Shown here piece after piece: positions 6,875 to 49,577 of a stretch of 64,000 nt of DNA. The translations under genes and the position numbers were made by a program. The stretch is from the NCBI GenBank assembly GCA_964345445.1, contig CAYFQT010000038.1, positions 30,893 to 94,892 on the forward strand. The letters are read 5' to 3'. Source of the stretch: an uncultured Candidatus Saccharibacteria bacterium (GTDB lineage: Bacteria > Patescibacteriota > CPR2_A > CAYFQT01). Position 1 is the stretch's first letter. Each line of letters opens with the position of its first letter. The notes beneath the pieces are model-generated. The model did not search any database. It was not told where the DNA came from and was given only the letters and a program-made list of their open reading frames with translations.

Positions 6875-8650
6875 ATGGACAAATTATCATCTTTTATCAA
6901 AAAACACAAAGTCAAATTGATAGTTGGTTTATTATTAACTGTTATGTTTTTTACAATGCTTGCATCTTCTGTGGGAGATTCAGGAATTGTTGATGAAATA
7001 GCTCATATTCCTGCTGGTTATTCTTATTTAACTACCGGCGATTTTCGAATTAATCCTGAGCATCCTCCTTTGATTAAATCTCTGTCAGCTGTTCCTTTAT
7101 TATTTTTAGGATTGAAATTTCCTTATAAATATTGGCAAGCTTATGGTAATAATCAATGGGAGCTGGGTTGGAAATTTATTTACCATTTTGGTAACAATCC
7201 TGATCGTATCTTTTTTTGGGCTAGAATCCCTATAATTTTATTAGCTTTATTATTAGGTTATTTTGTTTTCAGGTGGGCAAGAGAGCTTTATGGAGCAAAA
7301 GCAGGAATTTTTGCTTTATTTTTATATTCATTTTCTCCTAACATCATTGCCCATTCTCGATTTGTAACTACTGATTTAGGAATGACTATTTTTTATGTAT
7401 TAGCTGTTTATTTTTTTGGTAGATTTTTAAAAAATCCTACTAAGAGAAATGTTGTTATTGCCGGGGTGATTTTTGGATTGGCCCAGTTGGCAAAATTTTC
7501 AGCAGTACTCCTAGGCCCGATATTTATTATCCTTGTGATATTAAAGGCTTATTCTGAGAGTAAATTTATAAAGCAAGAAGATAAATCTTGGATTTCCAAT
7601 TTACTAGCTTATTTGTTTAATAAAAAAGTTTTTAAGAATGGATTAAAATATTTAGCAAAGCTAATTTTAATTTTTACAATTGCTCTTGCCTTAATTCTTT
7701 TGGTTTATTGGGTTCATACATTCCGTATGCCTTTGGCTGTTTGTGAAGATTTAATCAAAGAGTCAATCCCAACTAATCAGAATATTCAAAATGGTCTTAT
7801 TACAATTTCTCACTTTTCTAGACCTTTGGCTCAATATCTTTTAGGATTAGCAATGGTTTTTGCTCATGTAGGAGGAGGTCATACTGCTTTTCTTTTAGGA
7901 GGTTTTTCCAGAGTAGGTTGGTGGTATTATTTCCCCGTTGCTTTTCTTGTAAAAACACCTATTCCTACTTTAATATTTTTAGTTTTAGCTATTGCCTTAA
8001 TTAGAAAATTTAAATGGAAGTTTTCGGAATGGCTTTTAATTGTCCCTGTTATTTTCTATTTTTTAATTAGTATTAAAGGTTCTTTAAATATTGGAGTAAG
8101 ACATCTTCTTCCTATTTATCCATTTATTTTTATTTATGTAAGTAAGTTAGCGCCTGGCATTCAACAATTAGCCCTTAACTCTGTTAAGTTTTCAAAAAAA
8201 TGGCTTTTTAATTCCTTTTATTTATTTTTTGCTATTTTGTGCGGCTGGTATTTATGGACTTCATTATCTATATACCCTTATTATGTTGCTTATTTTAATG
8301 AAGCAATAGGCCCTAAAAATGGTTATAAATATTTAGTTGATTCATCTTTAGATTGGGGTCAGGATTTAAAAAGATTAACTAAATATGTAGAAGAAAATAA
8401 TATTAAAAATATAAAAGTGGATTATTTCGGTGGGGGTGTGCCTCAATATTATATTCCAGATAGCATAGAGTGGCATTCTCAATATGGCAAGACTTCCGGC
8501 CCGATTGCAATTTCGGCTACTTTCTTACAAATGAGCAAGTTCTATGCTCCCTTAGAAAACCAACCTTCTTACCAGTGGATAGAGAAATATGAACCGGAGA
8601 CGGTAATTGGTCATTCGATTTTTGTGTATAATATACCTGAGGAGAAGTAA
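6875..8650 (+). CDS. GT-C family 39/83 (PMT/ArnT-like) integral membrane glycosyltransferase
   Basis: 591 aa, more than 10 TM helices, DEIAHIPAGYSY...EHPPLIK motif in the first periplasmic loop. Confidence 0.8.
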   Translation: MDKLSSFIKKHKVKLIVGLLLTVMFFTMLASSVGDSGIVDEIAHIPAGYSYLTTGDFRINPEHPPLIKSLSAVPLLFLGLKFPYKYWQAYGNNQWELGWKFIYHFGNNPDRIFFWARIPIILLALLLGYFVFRWARELYGAKAGIFALFLYSFSPNIIAHSRFVTTDLGMTIFYVLAVYFFGRFLKNPTKRNVVIAGVIFGLAQLAKFSAVLLGPIFIILVILKAYSESKFIKQEDKSWISNLLAYLFNKKVFKNGLKYLAKLILIFTIALALILLVYWVHTFRMPLAVCEDLIKESIPTNQNIQNGLITISHFSRPLAQYLLGLAMVFAHVGGGHTAFLLGGFSRVGWWYYFPVAFLVKTPIPTLIFLVLAIALIRKFKWKFSEWLLIVPVIFYFLISIKGSLNIGVRHLLPIYPFIFIYVSKLAPGIQQLALNSVKFSKKWLFNSFYLFFAILCGWYLWTSLSIYPYYVAYFNEAIGPKNGYKYLVDSSLDWGQDLKRLTKYVEENNIKNIKVDYFGGGVPQYYIPDSIEWHSQYGKTSGPIAISATFLQMSKFYAPLENQPSYQWIEKYEPETVIGHSIFVYNIPEEK

Positions 8651-8850
8651 AATAATAAATCCGAAATCCTAAATACTAAACAATTTCAAAATTCTGATGT
8701 TCCAATATTCTAAACGTTTGTTTTAGTCATTTGTATTTATATATTAGGATTTGTTTAGGATTTAGAAATTAGATATTAGGATTTATTCTTAATTAGATAT
8801 TGATTAGGCATTAGGTCAATTAGGAATTAGAAATTAACTATTACAATAAT
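8651..8850. repeat. degenerate TTAGGATT / ATTAGG repeat-rich intergenic region
   Basis: At least seven ATTAGG(A/C)(A/T)TT units within 200 nt, plus an inverted AAATCCTAA at the 5' edge. Confidence 0.5.
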
Positions 8851-12011: not shown

Positions 12012-13445
12012 ATGCTTAAACTTTACAATACTTTAACTGGTAAGAAAGAATTATTCAGACCTATTGCAGGAAAAAAAGTAGGGATTTACACTTGTGGTCC
12101 CACTGTTTATGATTATATACATATTGGAAATCTGCGGGCATTTACAACTGCTGATATTCTGCGAAGATATTTGGAATATAGAGGTTTTAAAGTATATTAT
12201 ATAAAAAATATTACTGATGTTGGACATATGTTTGCAGATTCGGATGAAGGGAAAGATAAAGTTCTAGAGACAGCTCGGAAAGAAAAAAAAGATCCTTATG
12301 AAGTGGCTAAATTCTATGAGTCTGCTTTTTTAGAAGATGAAGGAAAGATGAATATCAAACCATCTAATGTTTATCCTAAAGCTACTGAACATATTGAAGA
12401 TATGATTGAATTGATAAAAAGATTGATTAAAAAAGGTTATGCTTATGAAACATCGGGTTCTGTTTATTTTAGAGTAAGAAAGTTTAGAAAATATGGGAGA
12501 CTATCAGGAAATACTATAGATCAACTTGCAGCTGGGAAACGAATCCAGCCACATCCTGATAAAAAAGATCCTTTTGATTTTGCTCTTTGGAAAAAAGCAG
12601 AACCCTCTCGTCTTATGAAATGGAACTCGCCTTGGGGTGAAGGTTATCCAGGTTGGCATATTGAATGTTCAGCAATGAGTATAAAATATTTAGGAGAAAG
12701 TTTTGATATCCATACTGGTGGTGAAGATAATATTTTTCCTCATCATGAGGATGAAATAGCTCAATCAGAAGGAGCGACAGGAAAAAAATTTGTTAGATAT
12801 TGGGTGCATACTCGTCATCTTTTAGTTAATAATCAAAAAATGTCTAAATCCCTGGGTAATTTTTATACCTTAAGAGATTTACAGGAAAAGGGTTATGATC
12901 CTAAAGCTTTAAGATATCTTTTTCTGACTTGCCACTTCCGAGATAGATTAAATTTTAGTTTGAAATCTTTATCTAGTGCAGAAAATACTTTAGAGAATAT
13001 AAGAGACTTTTTTTGGCGATTAAAAAATATAAAAAATAACAACAATAGAAGGAATAAAAAAATAGAAAAGTTAATTTCCAAAACTCAAAAGGGCTTTAGG
13101 AAAGAAATGGATAATGATTTAAATACGCCAAAAGCTTTGTCTTATATTTTTGATTTTATGAGAGAGGTTAATAGATTAGTAGATAAAGAGAGATTAAGTA
13201 AAAAAGATGCTAAATTGGTTTATAATGTTTTAATGGAATTTGATCAAGTATTAGGTTTGCTGAAATATTTGTCACATGAAGAAGAAATTTCTGAGGATAT
13301 TAAATTTTTGATCCGTGAAAGAGAAGAGGCCCGGAGAAAAAAAGACTGGGCTCATGCAGATGCTATTCGTGACCAACTTAAAGAAGAGGGTATAGAGTTA
13401 GAAGATACATCTTCTGGAACAAAATGGAGAAAGGTTAAAAAGTAA
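12012..13445 (+). CDS. cysS: cysteine--tRNA ligase
   Basis: HIGN (HIGH) and KMSKS motifs; CysRS architecture. Confidence 0.93.
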
Positions 13446-13450
13446 ATCAT

Positions 13451-13506
13451 TCCGGGATCGTCCCTGGCCGATACGAGCTCGGCTCGAGCAGGCTAATGGT
13501 AGGACA
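13451..13506 (+). other. duplicated 5' fragment of tRNA-Gln (acceptor 5' strand plus D-arm) interrupted by a 31-nt GC-rich insert
   Basis: TCCGGGATCGTC, then the 31-nt CCTGGCCGATACGAGCTCGGCTCGAGCAGGC, then TAATGGTAGGACA, versus the intact tRNA TCCGGGGTCGTC TAATGGTAGGACA. Confidence 0.7.
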
Positions 13507-13764
13507 ATGAAAATGGAAAAGTATTATTTTTATGTTTTAAAAAGCTTAAAAGATGGAAATTTATATAAAGTGTTTACAAAAGATATCAAAAAAAGATTAA
13601 ATGAACATAATTCAGGTAAAGTAAGATCTACAAAGAATAGAAAACCATTTATTTTGGTATATAAAGAAGAATTTCAAAATAAAAATGAAGTTATTAAAAA
13701 AGAAAAATATTATAAGTCTTTAAAAGGAGGTAAAGAGTTAAATAAAATTATAAGTAATGTTTAA
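13507..13764 (+). CDS. small stand-alone GIY-YIG nuclease family protein
   Basis: YYFYVLKS...GNLYKVFT...R..EHN pattern of the GIY-YIG domain, 85 aa. Confidence 0.75.
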   Translation: MKMEKYYFYVLKSLKDGNLYKVFTKDIKKRLNEHNSGKVRSTKNRKPFILVYKEEFQNKNEVIKKEKYYKSLKGGKELNKIISNV

Positions 13765-13772
13765 GTAATCGT

Positions 13773-13843
13773 TCCGGGGTCGTCTAATGGTAGGACATCA
13801 GGTTTTGGTCCTGAAAATTGGGGTTCGAGTCCCTGCCCCGGAG
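13773..13843 (+). tRNA. tRNA-Gln (anticodon UUG)
   Basis: Manual cloverleaf: acceptor TCCGGGG/CCCCGGA with U1:A72, D-stem GTCT/GGAC, anticodon stem TCAGG/CCTGA, loop TTTTGGT (anticodon TTG), T-arm TGGGG-TTCGAGT-CCCTG, discriminator G; no encoded CCA. Confidence 0.85.
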
Positions 13844-13853
13844 TTCCGCTTAG

Positions 13854-13877
13854 ATGCCTGCATGAAGGCATTTTTTG
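13854..13877 (+). terminator. Rho-independent terminator after tRNA-Gln
   Basis: ATGCCT-GCATGA-AGGCAT followed by TTTTTT. Confidence 0.5.
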
Positions 13878-13928
13878 GGTCTTACCCCAGGCTGGTCATC
13901 GAACCTTATAGTAATATATAGCTCTTGT

Positions 13929-22129: not shown

Positions 22130-22162
22130 TTTATTAGACTTTAGACCTAGGTAGATATTCAA

Positions 22163-22304
22163 TATAATCGCTCAGGGGAACGAAAATTTGCTTCTGCCCC
22201 GTAATAAAACGGGATAAACGGAACTTCTTTATCTCAGACAGCTTGCCCCGTAGGAGCAAAGGGACTTTCGGGGGCCTCGTGCACAAATTTTATTTCCTTC
22301 GCTT
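22163..22304 (+). ncRNA. conserved structured leader element, copy X (TATAATCGCTCAGGGGAACGAAAATTTGCTTCTGC ... CCTCGTGCACAAATTTTATTTCCTTCGCTT)
   Basis: The 5' 35 nt and 3' 30 nt are near-identical to copy Y at 33239-33334. AAAATTTGC and GCAAATTTT form a closing stem around a GC-rich variable core. Confidence 0.5.
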
Positions 22305-22331: not shown

Positions 22332-23726
22332 ATGGCTTTTAATTTGATGGAAAAAATTGTATCCCTATGTAAACGTCGAGGTTTTATATTTCCTTCCTCT
22401 GAGATTTATGGAGGAATTGGTGGATTTTGGGATTGGGGCCCATATGGAACAGAACTTAGAAATAATATAAAAAAAGCTTGGTGGAAAAATATAGTCCAAC
22501 AGCAAGATAATATTGTAGGTTTAGAGAGTTCCATTATTTCCAATCCCAAAGTTTGGGAAGCTTCAGGCCATACATCTTCCTTTGCTGATCCTTTGGTTGA
22601 TTGCAAAAAATGCAAAAAGAGATTTAGGGCTGATCATTTAATCCAGTCAATGGAGAAAAAGGAAGATGGGGTAGTTACCTCAGCAGAGATAGAAAAACTT
22701 AAAAAGGCCTTGAAGAAAGTTAGCTGTCCTGAATGTGGAGGAGAGCTGACCCAGCCAAGAAAATTTAATCTCCTGGTTCCTACTTATATTGGAGTTATAG
22801 AAGATGAAAAGTCAAAAACTTATCTAAGAGGAGAAACCTGTCAGGGTATATTTGTAGATTATGATTTAATTAGACAGTCTAGCCGGCTGAAAATTCCCTT
22901 TGGTATTGCTCAGATTGGTAAAGCTTTTAGGAATGAAATCACCCCTGGAAATTTTGTTTTTAGGTCTCGGGAATTTGAACAGATGGAATTGGAGTTTTTT
23001 ATAAACCCCAATGATGACAAAAAATGGTTTTCCTATTGGAAAAAGCAAAGATTAAAATGGTTTTTGGATTTAGGAGTGGAAAAAAAGAATTTAAGATTTC
23101 GTGATCACAAGAAAGATGAACTTGCTCATTATGCTAAGGAAGCAACTGATATTGAATACAAATTTCCTTTTGGCTGGAAAGAACTGGAAGGTGTTGCCAA
23201 CCGTACTGATTTTGATCTAAAACAACACTCTAAATATTCTGCAAAAGATTTAAGTTATTTTGATGAAGATACTAAAAAAAGATATATACCTTATGTAATA
23301 GAGCCTTCTTTGGGAGTAGATAGAGCAGCTTTAGTATTTCTATTAGATGCTTACCATGAAGTAAAAGGCGGAAGAACAAAAACAACCGAATCAATTAAGG
23401 AAAAAGAAGTGGTTTTAAAGCTGCATAAAGATCTAACTCCAATTAAAGTAGCAATTTTGCCTCTGTTACGCAAAGACCAGCTAATAAAGAAAACCAAGGA
23501 GATTTATGATTTGATGAAGAATCATTTTATGTCTGAATATGATGAAACTGGTTCAATAGGAAAGCGCTATCGCCGTCAAGATGAAATTGGTACTCCATAT
23601 TGTGTAACTATTGATTTTGATACTTTGAATGATAAAGCCGTCACTGTCCGTGATCGAGATTCAATGGTTCAAGATAGAATAAAGATTGAAAAGTTAGTAA
23701 AATTTTTATGTGAGAAATTAGAATAA
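22332..23726 (+). CDS. glyQS: glycine--tRNA ligase (dimeric GlyQS type)
   Basis: N-terminal KRRGFIFPSSEIYGGIGGFWDWGPYG, class II aaRS core, 464 aa. Confidence 0.92.
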   Translation: MAFNLMEKIVSLCKRRGFIFPSSEIYGGIGGFWDWGPYGTELRNNIKKAWWKNIVQQQDNIVGLESSIISNPKVWEASGHTSSFADPLVDCKKCKKRFRADHLIQSMEKKEDGVVTSAEIEKLKKALKKVSCPECGGELTQPRKFNLLVPTYIGVIEDEKSKTYLRGETCQGIFVDYDLIRQSSRLKIPFGIAQIGKAFRNEITPGNFVFRSREFEQMELEFFINPNDDKKWFSYWKKQRLKWFLDLGVEKKNLRFRDHKKDELAHYAKEATDIEYKFPFGWKELEGVANRTDFDLKQHSKYSAKDLSYFDEDTKKRYIPYVIEPSLGVDRAALVFLLDAYHEVKGGRTKTTESIKEKEVVLKLHKDLTPIKVAILPLLRKDQLIKKTKEIYDLMKNHFMSEYDETGSIGKRYRRQDEIGTPYCVTIDFDTLNDKAVTVRDRDSMVQDRIKIEKLVKFLCEKLE

Positions 23727-47969: not shown

Positions 47970-49115
47970 TTAAGTATTTAATTCTTTTTTTCGCCTAAAA
48001 AGTTCTTTTTGGGCTATACCCAAAGCTCCTAAGCCAAGTAATATAACTATAAAATTAATAATTCCTCCTATAAAAGGAATATTTATAACAATCAAAATTA
48101 ACACTAAACCTAGAAATAAACTTTGTACCGTCGGTATATCTTGTTTTTTAGTAAAGTAAACTAAAGTTCTTTTACCTAAATATAAACCTACAAAGATTTT
48201 GCTTATATATATAACTATAATATATATACATAAAGTAATTAAAGCTAAAGGGACTCCTATTATAGTTATAAATAATAAAATACAGATTATAGGCACTAAA
48301 AACAATAAAACAAATCCTATTCCTAAACTTAGGAGAGATTTTTTCTGTAAATTATCGACGACTTGATTAGATTTTTTAGGAAAAAGATACATCAAAATCA
48401 ATCCTATAATTATCAAAGAGGCTAATGATATTATTTTTCCAATTAATATTCCTTTTACATTTGCTGTTTTTCTTACCTGTTGAGGAGTTTTATGTGTTGT
48501 TTGTCCTTTAACTTTACCTTGAATTTGAGCTTCTTTATCACTTGTATAATTTAAATCCCCGGCAATTACACTTTTTTCACTTAGAGTTAAATTTTCACAA
48601 CTTACATTTACATTTCCTTCAATCCCTCCACCAATTTCCAAATTTCCAACCTCACCTCTAACTTTTTTCTTTACTTTTCCATTGATTTTAACTGTTCCTC
48701 CATATACTATTACATCACCTTCAATTGAACTTTCTCCTCTAAAATCTACATTGCCAGCAAATACGATTACATCACTCATTACTGTTCCGCTTAAGGTTAC
48801 ATCTGCCCCAGCTACTCTGATGTCATCTCTTACTATTCCAGAGATATTTATTATCTGACCAACAGCAATTACATCACCAGAGACATTGCCTGGGATATTT
48901 ATTTTCCTTCCTGCAGCAATTACATCACCAGAGACAATTCCATCTATATCTATATTATTAGCAGCGGTTATAAAATCATCTTCTAAAACTTGGTCTTTAG
49001 AAACAAAAGTGTAATCTCCTGTACGGATTTCAGTAGCTTGGGCAATAGTTCCAAAGAAAAAAATTGAAATAAATAAATATAAAACTATTCCCCAAATTAT
49101 TTTTTTAGTTTTCAT
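47970..49115 (-). CDS. bactofilin/DUF4097-like beta-helix repeat protein with N-terminal signal and C-terminal multi-TM region
   Basis: Repeated GDVIA.G..I.I.G.V.G motifs. The ORF track starts at TTG 49163; ATG MKTKKIIW with GAGGGAGG SD near 49115 is the likely start. Confidence 0.55.
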   Translation of the reverse strand: MKTKKIIWGIVLYLFISIFFFGTIAQATEIRTGDYTFVSKDQVLEDDFITAANNIDIDGIVSGDVIAAGRKINIPGNVSGDVIAVGQIINISGIVRDDIRVAGADVTLSGTVMSDVIVFAGNVDFRGESSIEGDVIVYGGTVKINGKVKKKVRGEVGNLEIGGGIEGNVNVSCENLTLSEKSVIAGDLNYTSDKEAQIQGKVKGQTTHKTPQQVRKTANVKGILIGKIISLASLIIIGLILMYLFPKKSNQVVDNLQKKSLLSLGIGFVLLFLVPIICILLFITIIGVPLALITLCIYIIVIYISKIFVGLYLGKRTLVYFTKKQDIPTVQSLFLGLVLILIVINIPFIGGIINFIVILLGLGALGIAQKELFRRKKELNT

Positions 49116-49577
49116 ATTTTCCTCCCTCGTCGAAGTAAACTTCAAGCTTTGGCGATCCCACAAAGTAGAATCGCTCTCGCTTTTCGTTCACTTCTCCTCT
49201 TTTGGCAAAATACTTTAGTATTTTGCTTAGTGAAATATTAAAAATCTCAGTTTCCATTCCAAAATCACCTTGGTGTTTCTTGGTGTTTAAAGCTTCCGCT
49301 TATTTCTTCTCTCCGTTAAAATGCTAAAATATTTTAACAGGCTTTTTTGATAATAATTATTCCTTTGTGGGGTCGAAGGCCCCGACGACTCGCTTCGGAT
49401 CGCCCGAATCGAGGCGAGAACACAAGTGGATGTCGGGACAACTTTCATTATTTATATTCATTGTAAAAATTGAAGCCCTATCGTAACACAAGTGGATAAA
49501 AGGACAATTTCTTTTGTTAAATTAGTTAAATTACCATTTATTCTATTCTACTTTAATTCTTTTTTTTGTGCAAATTT

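Follow-up and report, generated by a model that had tools for sequence, protein, structure and literature searches.

SegB, a free-standing GIY-YIG homing endonuclease of T4/T6-like phages, cuts within transfer RNA (tRNA) genes (PMC2330249; PMC13096335). Its gene shows statistical enrichment next to tRNAs of many isotypes, and it drives the tandem amplification of tRNA plus segB by way of microhomology that the 5' end of the tRNA shares with the 3' end of segB (PMC13096335). In fungal mitochondria, mobile endonuclease open reading frames (mORFs) insert together with a duplicated gene terminus, as in atp6 of Allomyces macrogynus and in atp6, atp9, cox2 and nad3 of Glomus (PMC3630166). The prokaryotic UPF0213 or Slx1-like GIY-YIG proteins have been treated as putative repair or recombination proteins, some of them noted as fused to tRNA methyltransferases and one as recently inserted into hsdR (PMC1564403). 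Here we describe a locus in a 64,000-nucleotide (nt) stretch of contig CAYFQT010000038.1 from an uncultured Candidatus Saccharibacteria bacterium (hereafter, the window), in which a gene for a stand-alone UPF0213/Slx1-like protein lies between a broken copy of the 5' part of tRNA-Gln and an intact tRNA-Gln(UUG) gene. We consider it probable that a mobile cassette, made up of a GC-rich hairpin and this open reading frame (ORF), invaded the tRNA-Gln gene, and that partial duplication of the target regenerated the tRNA.

The locus (Table 1) presents what would be an occupied allele: a fragmentary copy of the tRNA broken by hairpin and ORF, with a complete tRNA gene regenerated 8 nt downstream. 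The first-pass annotation had reported a 25-nt copy of the tRNA-Gln 5' end with one mismatch after cysS, an abutting 85-amino-acid (aa) stand-alone GIY-YIG ORF, and a complete tRNA-Gln(UUG) 8 nt past the stop codon of that ORF. All three are borne out. The copy is present, with a gap of 5 nt between the cysS stop and its first piece; the ATG at 13507 directly follows the last fragment base at 13506, and the protein matches the Pfam GIY-YIG family PF01541 over residues 5-74 (E 5.8e-13; 49.4 bits, gathering score 22.6); ARAGORN and Rfam (58.5 bits) both recover the tRNA, the sole one in the 64-kb window. Of the two copies, only the intact one is recognised as a tRNA. The duplication reaches some 5-10 nt into the 5' leader (AAGTAAATCAT versus AAGTAA-TCGT), and the leader ATCAT before the fragment resembles both ATCGT, which precedes the intact copy, and TTCAT in a relative (locus L082; public loci are cited by number with the prefix L). 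A blastn-short search of 700 nt to either side gave E-values of 4.6e-4 and 0.11 for the two repeat blocks, for which chance is excluded because they are collinear and recur family-wide. The insert that splits the copy, described earlier as a 31-nt GC-rich palindrome, has that size and is GC-rich (71%, in a window of 30.5% GC, where it is among about a dozen GC-rich 30-mers); as a palindrome it is only imperfect, its 18-nt arms being 78% complementary. The terminator placed after the tRNA is likewise half upheld: a hairpin and T-run are visible by eye at 13854-13876, but a promoter and terminator scan did not call them. Promoter-like matches at the locus were no commoner than in shuffled sequences, and Rfam returned tRNA only, both at an E-value threshold for the region and 13 related loci and at the gathering threshold for the whole window.

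Table 1. Features of the tRNA-Gln locus in the window
Feature	Coordinates	Strand	Evidence or remark
cysS (cysteinyl-tRNA synthetase)	12012..13445	+	Pfam PF01406/PF09190/PF23493; TAA stop 13443-13445
Putative native 5' leader of the original tRNA-Gln (ATCAT)	13446..13450	+	Repeat search, alignment with relatives
Pseudo-tRNA piece A (TCCGGGATCGTC), tRNA-Gln positions 1-12, G7>A	13451..13462	+	
GC-rich hairpin module of 31 nt, family F4 (CCTGGCCGATACGAGCTCGGCTCGAGCAGGC)	13463..13493	+	In the D-stem, between positions 12 and 13
Pseudo-tRNA piece B (TAATGGTAGGACA), exact copy of tRNA-Gln raw positions 13-25	13494..13506	+	
Stand-alone GIY-YIG (UPF0213/Slx1-like) nuclease ORF, 85 aa	13507..13764	+	ATG 13507, stop 13762-13764
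Spacer/leader of 8 nt (GTAATCGT) between ORF stop and intact tRNA	13765..13772	+	
Intact tRNA-Gln(UUG)	13773..13843	+	Rfam RF00005, 58.5 bits; ARAGORN 13772-13844
Terminator-like hairpin (ATGCCT-GCATGA-AGGCAT) and T6 run, 3' of the tRNA	13854..13876	+	By eye

In its general plan the locus resembles the mORFs, such as the GIY-YIG ORF in atp9, where a free-standing endonuclease ORF is likewise found between one functional hybrid gene and a displaced fragment. The differences are several. The mORFs are organellar and reside in protein genes, whereas the window cassette is bacterial and resides in a tRNA gene; they duplicate the 3' end of the target and it duplicates the 5' end, though 3' versions occur in its family; and the hairpin module, present here, is absent from them.

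Close relatives of the source organism carry the same junction without the cassette. Locus L082 encodes the closest CysS homolog (P0122, 81% identity) in the same YbaB-RecR-CorA-CysS order, and its cysS stop is followed after 14 nt by an intact tRNA-Gln(UUG), with neither fragment nor ORF in between. This tRNA is followed by a 42-nt hairpin, flanked by a 7-nt repeat (CGGAGCC) taken from the tRNA 3' end, and further on by another GIY-YIG gene, 45% identical to that of the window (L082 5445-5849). In L089 (CysS 65% identical, same synteny), cysS is succeeded by a 44-nt spacer with a TATAAT-like box and an intact tRNA-Gln, and there are zero GIY-YIG genes. In L088 (CysS 79% identical), cysS and tRNA-Gln are present and GC-rich hairpins follow the tRNA, but the short contig holds no ORF. 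The junction between cysS and tRNA-Gln is therefore polymorphic for presence and absence of the cassette among close relatives, neither L082 nor L089 having fragment or ORF there, and in alignment the insert of 31-32 nt is missing from every intact tRNA. It follows that the tRNA-Gln locus took separate hits in two close relatives, on one side in the window and on the other in L082, and that it is vacant in a third.

The first clue to a wider pattern lay in the C-termini of homologs (...CGVV*, ...SGIV*, ...AQLVEQ), which are translated tRNA 5' ends. Homologs of the ORF fell into 127 clusters in a word-indexed search and into 5,330 clusters at 50% identity in an exhaustive one. We sampled 182 related ORFs in 167 public loci (80 genome loci and 80 metagenome loci were fetched) from Patescibacteria, Ignavibacteriota, Bacteroidota, Margulisiibacteriota, Omnitrophota and others, and annotated the loci with hmmsearch and ARAGORN. 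A tRNA was counted as downstream if it started in the interval -120 to +40 nt relative to the ORF end, and as upstream if its end lay within 200 nt. So defined, a downstream tRNA accompanies 62 of the 182 ORFs, where about 0.7 cases would be expected by chance from the background tRNA density in the same loci (0.05 per kb), and an upstream tRNA accompanies 26; the adjacent tRNA is on the strand of the ORF in 88 of 88. The arrangement of fragment, ORF and tRNA is thus found at other tRNAs as well, the 62 downstream cases spanning 19 anticodon classes, with tRNA-Gln contributing 28. In 36 of these 62 the stop codon of the ORF lies inside the tRNA, typically as a TAA or TAG of the D-loop (e.g. 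L003 2756-2770). RNase P cleavage of a common precursor may in such cases leave a non-stop mRNA and so put a brake on nuclease expression.

Partial duplication of the neighbouring tRNA is close to universal. Collinear exact tRNA blocks of at least 10 nt occur within 140 nt upstream of the ORF in 55 of the 59 testable downstream cases; with blocks of at least 14 nt the count is 46, against 6 of 59 for a control region. The blocks are mostly split by an insert of 17-69 nt that is GC-rich relative to its locus and strongly folded, with folding energies (dG) of -10 to -44. A mirror-image layout, in which tRNA and ORF are followed by a 3' fragment with a hairpin in place of the internal part, was seen at 14 loci (e.g. 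tRNA-Cys in Ignavibacteria), and about 12 further loci present a tRNA, a hairpin region and then the ORF. Tandem arrays of the form ORF-fragment-ORF-tRNA occur in L023, L034 and L051, and some loci hold ORF-less pseudo-tRNAs interrupted by a hairpin. Breakpoints concentrate in the D-arm, near position 26, and in the T-loop (between TT and CGAATCC). In a neighbour-joining tree, the tRNA-linked ORFs form a clade apart from a second type that is bracketed by inverted repeats (described below), and the window ORF groups with elements at tRNA-Gln(CUG) and tRNA-Trp. The arrangement is a trait of this UPF0213-type clade, about half of the sampled relatives being tRNA-linked. The proposal of the first-pass annotation that the duplication is the footprint of a tRNA-targeted insertion or homing-like event gains support from the empty sites and from this recurrence; its further remark that such a setting is unusual for UPF0213-type proteins is contradicted by the same census.

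Some cluster representatives are longer than a single domain. P0241, P0245 and P0252 (157-214 aa) contain two GIY-YIG stretches, and many others have N-terminal extensions of 20-60 aa; the probable explanations are tandem arrays translated as a single ORF, and genes called across the open stretch of pseudo-tRNA and hairpin.

With SegB the family shares a GIY-YIG gene adjoining tRNA genes and statistically tied to many isotypes (62 + 26 of 182), breakpoints that often fall in the T-loop or D-loop, and ORF 3' ends that overlap tRNA 5' ends. The SegB motif RAWTSGAAC, in reverse complement GTTCSAWTY, would itself appear to match the conserved tRNA T-loop. SegB, however, is a phage-encoded protein of about 220 aa, of the I-TevI type with a DNA-binding domain, whereas the window protein is a minimal domain encoded on a cellular chromosome, and stable hairpin-interrupted pseudo-tRNA halves of the kind seen here are not reported for SegB loci. 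The published account of UPF0213/Slx1-like proteins (PMC1564403) includes neither tRNA-gene adjacency nor target duplications nor mobility; the family of the window cassette displays the first two. Full-text literature searches turned up no account of UPF0213-type genes in cellular genomes that lie within duplicated tRNA genes, and we are apparently dealing with a widespread selfish element targeting tRNA genes that has so far gone undescribed.

The hairpin is inherited together with the ORF. L083 and L084 encode the proteins most similar to that of the window (61% and 59% identity). In both loci a leader and positions 1-12 of tRNA-Gln(CUG) come first, then CCTGGCCGACACGAGTGTCAGCTCGGGCAGGC, a D-arm remnant and the ATG, and the ORF extends into an intact tRNA-Gln(CUG). 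The insert of L083 and L084 is homologous to that of the window and occupies the same position, between nucleotides 12 and 13. The D-arm differs between the two tRNA-Gln isoacceptors (GCCAAGCGGTAAGGC in L083 and L084 versus GTCTAATGGTAGGAC in the window), and in all three loci the flanking tRNA pieces match the local tRNA. On the strength of these alignments, the 31-nt insert is no product of random decay, but a homologous hairpin module that moves with the ORF. Other modules recur in the same manner. Family F1 is a double hairpin (CCCCGC-N4-GCGGGG TCCCGC-N4-GCGGGA) found in 14 loci, with invariant stems and variable loops, and always sits between G18 and U19 of tRNA-Gln, 12-17 nt before the ATG. 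F2 (CCTCGGCCGTAG...CTACGGGCGAGG) occurs in 8 loci, at tRNA-Gln and tRNA-Glu alike, and F3 has the form CCTGCCCCGC-N3-GCGGGGTAAA. Target-site duplications around the hairpins were not seen in tRNA contexts; L082 has the 7-nt repeat mentioned above. Candidate roles for the hairpin are a nuclease site, a spacer against loss of the ORF between direct repeats, and a stabiliser of the mRNA 5' end. A further idea, that it sequesters the pseudo-acceptor strand, was rejected; it would apply to TGCGGGA-type tRNAs only, and F1 is unchanged beside other acceptor stems.

F5, a 20-nt palindrome (CCTGCCTGCCGGYAGGCAGG), is nearly unchanged in 16 GIY-YIG loci, where it lies mostly within tRNA-derived sequence (the F5 loci include L039, L070, L101, L115, L126, L160 and L169). 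It was also found in 47 stretches of IMG/VR contigs (L170-L216) of 33-70% GC, sometimes several times per contig and in some copies bounded by direct repeats of 7-14 nt (e.g. L179, L173). A mobile palindrome, a nuclease site and a technical artefact are all candidates for what F5 represents. A viral tRNA-Met (L200 2239-2330 and L172 at about 8570-8680) has F5 in the variable region, so that ARAGORN reads a 92-nt tRNA, with no second copy seen nearby; the hairpin could be tolerated there as a long variable arm. The sole viral-contig case found of the full layout is L211 (454-819; IMGVR_UViG_3300035537_000177), in which a tRNA 5' piece (TAGCTCAGTTGGTA), the palindrome, GAGC... and a GIY-YIG ORF follow one another; it was located via the palindrome and not by the protein pattern scan.

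The origin of the tRNA pieces is a separate matter. Although acceptor stems vary widely between loci, the acceptor strand of a fragment normally equals that of the adjacent tRNA, and in about ten loci 10-19 nt of the leader are duplicated as well (e.g. L012, L024, L034, L035, L115, L156). This local match of acceptor strands and leaders points to target-derived duplication or gene conversion, and the sequences suggest that the duplication is largely target-derived rather than imported. The mORFs differ in this respect also, their duplicate being foreign and horizontally acquired where most duplicates here match the local tRNA. There are exceptions: the fragment of L118 equals the tRNA of L105 type, and L003, L026 and the window show 1-3 differences.

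The window protein is a single minimal domain without accessory domains. A phmmer comparison links it to the UPF0213 structures 1ywl_A (EF2693; E 3.4e-10) and 1zg2_A (BH0048; E 4e-8), PHROG and NCBIfam gave no match, and by its sequence the protein belongs to the Slx1-like UPF0213 group and not to the SegB/I-TevI group. The catalytic core (Y9, Y20, R30, H34, E66), invariant in 54 of 54 homologs, is kept. Two other positions, each conserved in 53 of 54 homologs, are substituted: G22V, which affects the G of the YIG motif, and A62V. Homolog ORFs run into the tRNA and end at the TAA of its D-loop, while the window ORF stops earlier because of an 11-nt internal duplication (AGTAATGTTTA followed by AGTAATCG) spanning its last codons and the spacer. 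Judging from these two substitutions and the premature stop, the window copy may be inactive, degenerating or past its active phase, and by analogy such decay would be as expected late in the life cycle of a homing endonuclease. A repeat match had raised the possibility that the C-terminus is a duplicated 3' end of cysS; this was ruled out, as the C-terminus aligns with the family consensus. The reading frame is open from 13402, with its first start codon at 13507; public annotations have it begin at the second in-frame ATG (13513), for a length of 83 aa. An AGGA in the D-arm of pseudo-tRNA piece B sits 8 nt 5' of this second ATG, and from its position could act as a Shine-Dalgarno sequence.

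About one third of the sampled relatives form the sister clade, in which the ORF is bracketed by an inverted repeat of 10-14 nt (e.g. TTTACCCTGTTAAAT ... TTAACAGGGTGAA), whose left arm precedes the ATG by 25-40 nt and whose right arm overlaps the stop codon (L006, L020, L028, L041, L048, L053, L054, L058, L065, L071, L073, L074, L076, L081 and others; examples are L053 700-1010 and L020 2440-2770). These units are found between operon genes and also precisely inside otherwise intact genes, at conserved motifs. The host genes include those for a tyrosine recombinase (between HTFRHS and FATHLL), a reverse transcriptase (between REIF and AADFRDRVVHH) and an NAD-epimerase (between GAAGF and IG), as well as PF05635 four-helix-bundle genes. 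When the units are excised conceptually, Pfam matches continue across the junction; the units may be spliced, excised or plainly gene-killing. At the NAD-epimerase loci (L077 1-420; L061 1850-2243; L080 600-1100; L049 2400-2850) a copy of the host gene's 5' part stands on either side of the element. This duplicate, of at least 54 nt, includes the start codon and upstream region, the intact gene lies 3' of the element, and the whole corresponds, in a protein gene, to the duplication of the tRNA 5' part. The integrase gene of L053, which carries a full element, also contains at about 1090-1160 an ORF-less miniature of some 66 nt (ATCCCGTGAGATA...TATCTCACGGGAT), which looks like a non-autonomous, MITE-like (miniature inverted-repeat) derivative.

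If the cassette did invade the tRNA-Gln gene, its installation can be pictured by analogy with SegB and the mitochondrial mORFs. The nuclease, or a relative acting in trans, would break a tRNA gene in a conserved loop region, and recombinational repair off an element-bearing copy would then install the cassette and duplicate the 5' part of the tRNA. The outcome would be an upstream 5' fragment that no longer functions (positions 1-25, interrupted by the hairpin) and, downstream, a tRNA that is complete and functional. The cassette would ride in what is effectively a long 5' leader of the pre-tRNA. Transcription would proceed from the cysS or tRNA promoter, with the D-arm AGGA as a possible ribosome-binding site, and RNase P would release the mature tRNA. 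The cost of the insertion to the host would be low because RNase P can effect this release.

Several observations weigh against such an invasion, or at least against its simplest form. Firstly, no UPF0213-type protein is known from biochemical work to be a site-specific or homing nuclease, and the 85-aa protein is without a DNA-binding domain of the I-TevI/SegB type. Secondly, shuffled sequences fold just as well as the window hairpin (z -0.8), so the palindrome claimed for it is not significant as a structure. Thirdly, the protein-pattern search of IMG/VR gave no relatives that would point to a vector for horizontal spread. Fourthly, it is the fragment, with its A7, and not the intact copy that departs by one substitution from the tRNA of the relative; the fragment's leader resembles the relative's leader, yet its A7 differs from relative and intact copy alike, and either of the two copies may be the native one. 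Fifthly, a simple insertion model does not predict that local tRNA blocks should flank a hairpin which, together with the ORF, is shared between loci. Gene conversion, or incorporation of the recipient's broken end, is needed to account for this. Lastly, the regenerated intact tRNA should remain a target, which leaves self-immunity without an explanation, and both co-transcription and RNase P processing are inferred, not observed.

A broader reading takes in both clades, and we advance it only tentatively. Here a minimal Slx1-like, probably structure-specific GIY-YIG nuclease and GC-rich hairpins serving as its cis-acting sites would together make up an unrecognised class of bacterial mobile element. 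The tRNA-linked clade would stay silent through tRNA regeneration, hidden in a pre-tRNA leader or trailer that RNase P or RNase Z removes, and the sister clade would be removed or bypassed by an unknown route of excision or splicing. As for the hairpins, the F5 palindromes dispersed over viral contigs and viral tRNAs among them, they would be non-autonomous derivatives that are mobilised in trans.

Among the rival explanations, a local accordion process deserves the first hearing, though we think it unlikely. A resident nuclease would break the neighbouring tRNA, and unequal or microhomology-mediated recombination would generate the fragments in situ, with no horizontal homing. The exact duplication of the local leader in many fragments (10 to 19 nt), the usual identity of fragment acceptor strands with the local tRNA despite differences between loci, and the tandem arrays would all follow naturally, and amplification of this kind driven by SegB is documented. 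The process does not account for close relatives of ORF and hairpin at different tRNAs (Gln UUG, Gln CUG and Trp; F2 at Gln and Glu), for the two close relatives without an ORF at this position, one of which carries another ORF beyond the tRNA, or for the occupation of 19 tRNA classes. These observations require movement between loci.

Slightly less credit, in our estimation, is due to a domesticated gene of tRNA operons, whose product would have a cellular function related to tRNA or RNA and would be co-transcribed for that reason, the fragments being incidental relics. Strict same-strand adjacency and the overlap of ORF and tRNA in more than half of the downstream cases are what such a gene might show. 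The family is also large, and Slx1-like GIY-YIG domains are known in fusions or operons with the tRNA methyltransferase TrmH and with COG4123 (PMC1564403). However, the gene is patchily distributed among close relatives, may stand upstream or downstream of the same tRNA and has no fixed tRNA partner; partial target duplications are near-universal and tandem arrays exist; the sister clade is inserted in unrelated protein-coding genes; and the window copy is substituted at near-invariant positions.

It is improbable that the ORF is passenger cargo, carried along while a tyrosine integrase or Xer-type recombinase acting at tRNA attachment (att) sites, or the hairpin itself, does the moving. As in integrase islands and prophages, which use tRNA genes as classic integration sites, a tRNA is targeted, a partial tRNA duplicate flanks the insert and the intact tRNA is regenerated. 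F5 stands alone in many unrelated contexts, sometimes with short direct repeats, and the ORF-less hairpin-interrupted pseudo-tRNAs could be read in the same sense. Against this, no recombinase or integrase gene is present in the unit of about 320 nt or among its neighbours. Integrase-type elements duplicate the 3' part of the tRNA as att sites, whereas here the 5' part is duplicated and the duplicate is interrupted by a hairpin; and F1 to F4 occur only beside ORFs in the sampled loci, which were themselves chosen around ORFs.

We find it highly improbable that the copy broken by the hairpin functions as an intron-like or split tRNA, with the hairpin and the ORF-containing segment removed at the RNA level, which would make the arrangement a bacterial non-canonical tRNA intron with a homing endonuclease. 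There are points of likeness to archaeal non-canonical, split and permuted tRNAs, with inserts in the D-loop, anticodon loop, variable region and T-loop and tRNA halves as separate pieces, and ARAGORN reads some copies as intron-containing tRNAs (L015; the viral tRNA-Met of L200). Yet an intact, uninterrupted tRNA just past the ORF makes splicing unneeded, A7 of the fragment would mispair with C66, and no ribozyme or other non-tRNA Rfam family was detected. The organism is a bacterium without a known bulge-helix-bulge motif or splicing endonuclease, and to our knowledge there is no bacterial bulge-helix-bulge splicing system. The simplest view of the tRNA pieces is that they are dead fragments. 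Chance similarity or an assembly artefact, finally, is effectively refuted, having nothing but the short length of each repeat block in its favour, by the identical arrangement in an independent Logan assembly (L001) and by 55 further loci of the same architecture from many assemblers and projects.

The wider surroundings of the locus require brief comment. Its neighbours in the window are YbaB, RecR, CorA, CysS and a P-type ATPase, and the window's genes together with the names on their homologs place the DNA in the Patescibacteria, or candidate phyla radiation (CPR). An archaeal (DPANN) origin with a split tRNA was ruled out by the bacterial RecR and YbaB neighbours and by the bacterial U1-A72/G73 identity of the tRNA. 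CysS (12012-13445) finds its nearest named homologs in DPANN and other archaea (55-59% identity); it may be an archaeal-type synthetase, or ultra-small archaea and CPR bacteria may have exchanged it. Elsewhere, the most stable GC-rich structured segment of the window is a 57-nt intergenic stretch at 49362-49418 (dG -28 kcal/mol), probably the minus-strand 5' region of the gene at 47970-49163, and a GC-enriched, structured intergenic leader lies at 22160-22290, upstream of a 464-aa ORF at 22332. Neither segment has an Rfam match at the gathering threshold.

While stand-alone UPF0213/Slx1-like GIY-YIG proteins are very common, they are without an established function, and a clade nested in tRNA genes gives them a selfish role that can be tested. 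The finding also bears on annotation. Pseudo-tRNA halves and hairpin-interrupted copies can mislead the annotation of tRNAs, and ORF calls often run through the fragment or into the tRNA. In addition, lineages may exchange tRNA 5' halves. If the cassette is indeed mobile, the association between SegB and tRNA genes would extend from phages to cellular genomes, and especially to the reduced genomes of Patescibacteria, in which each tRNA gene is precious. Should the hairpins prove to be the recognition sites of a minimal structure-specific nuclease, these units of about 320 nt would be among the smallest autonomous mobile units.

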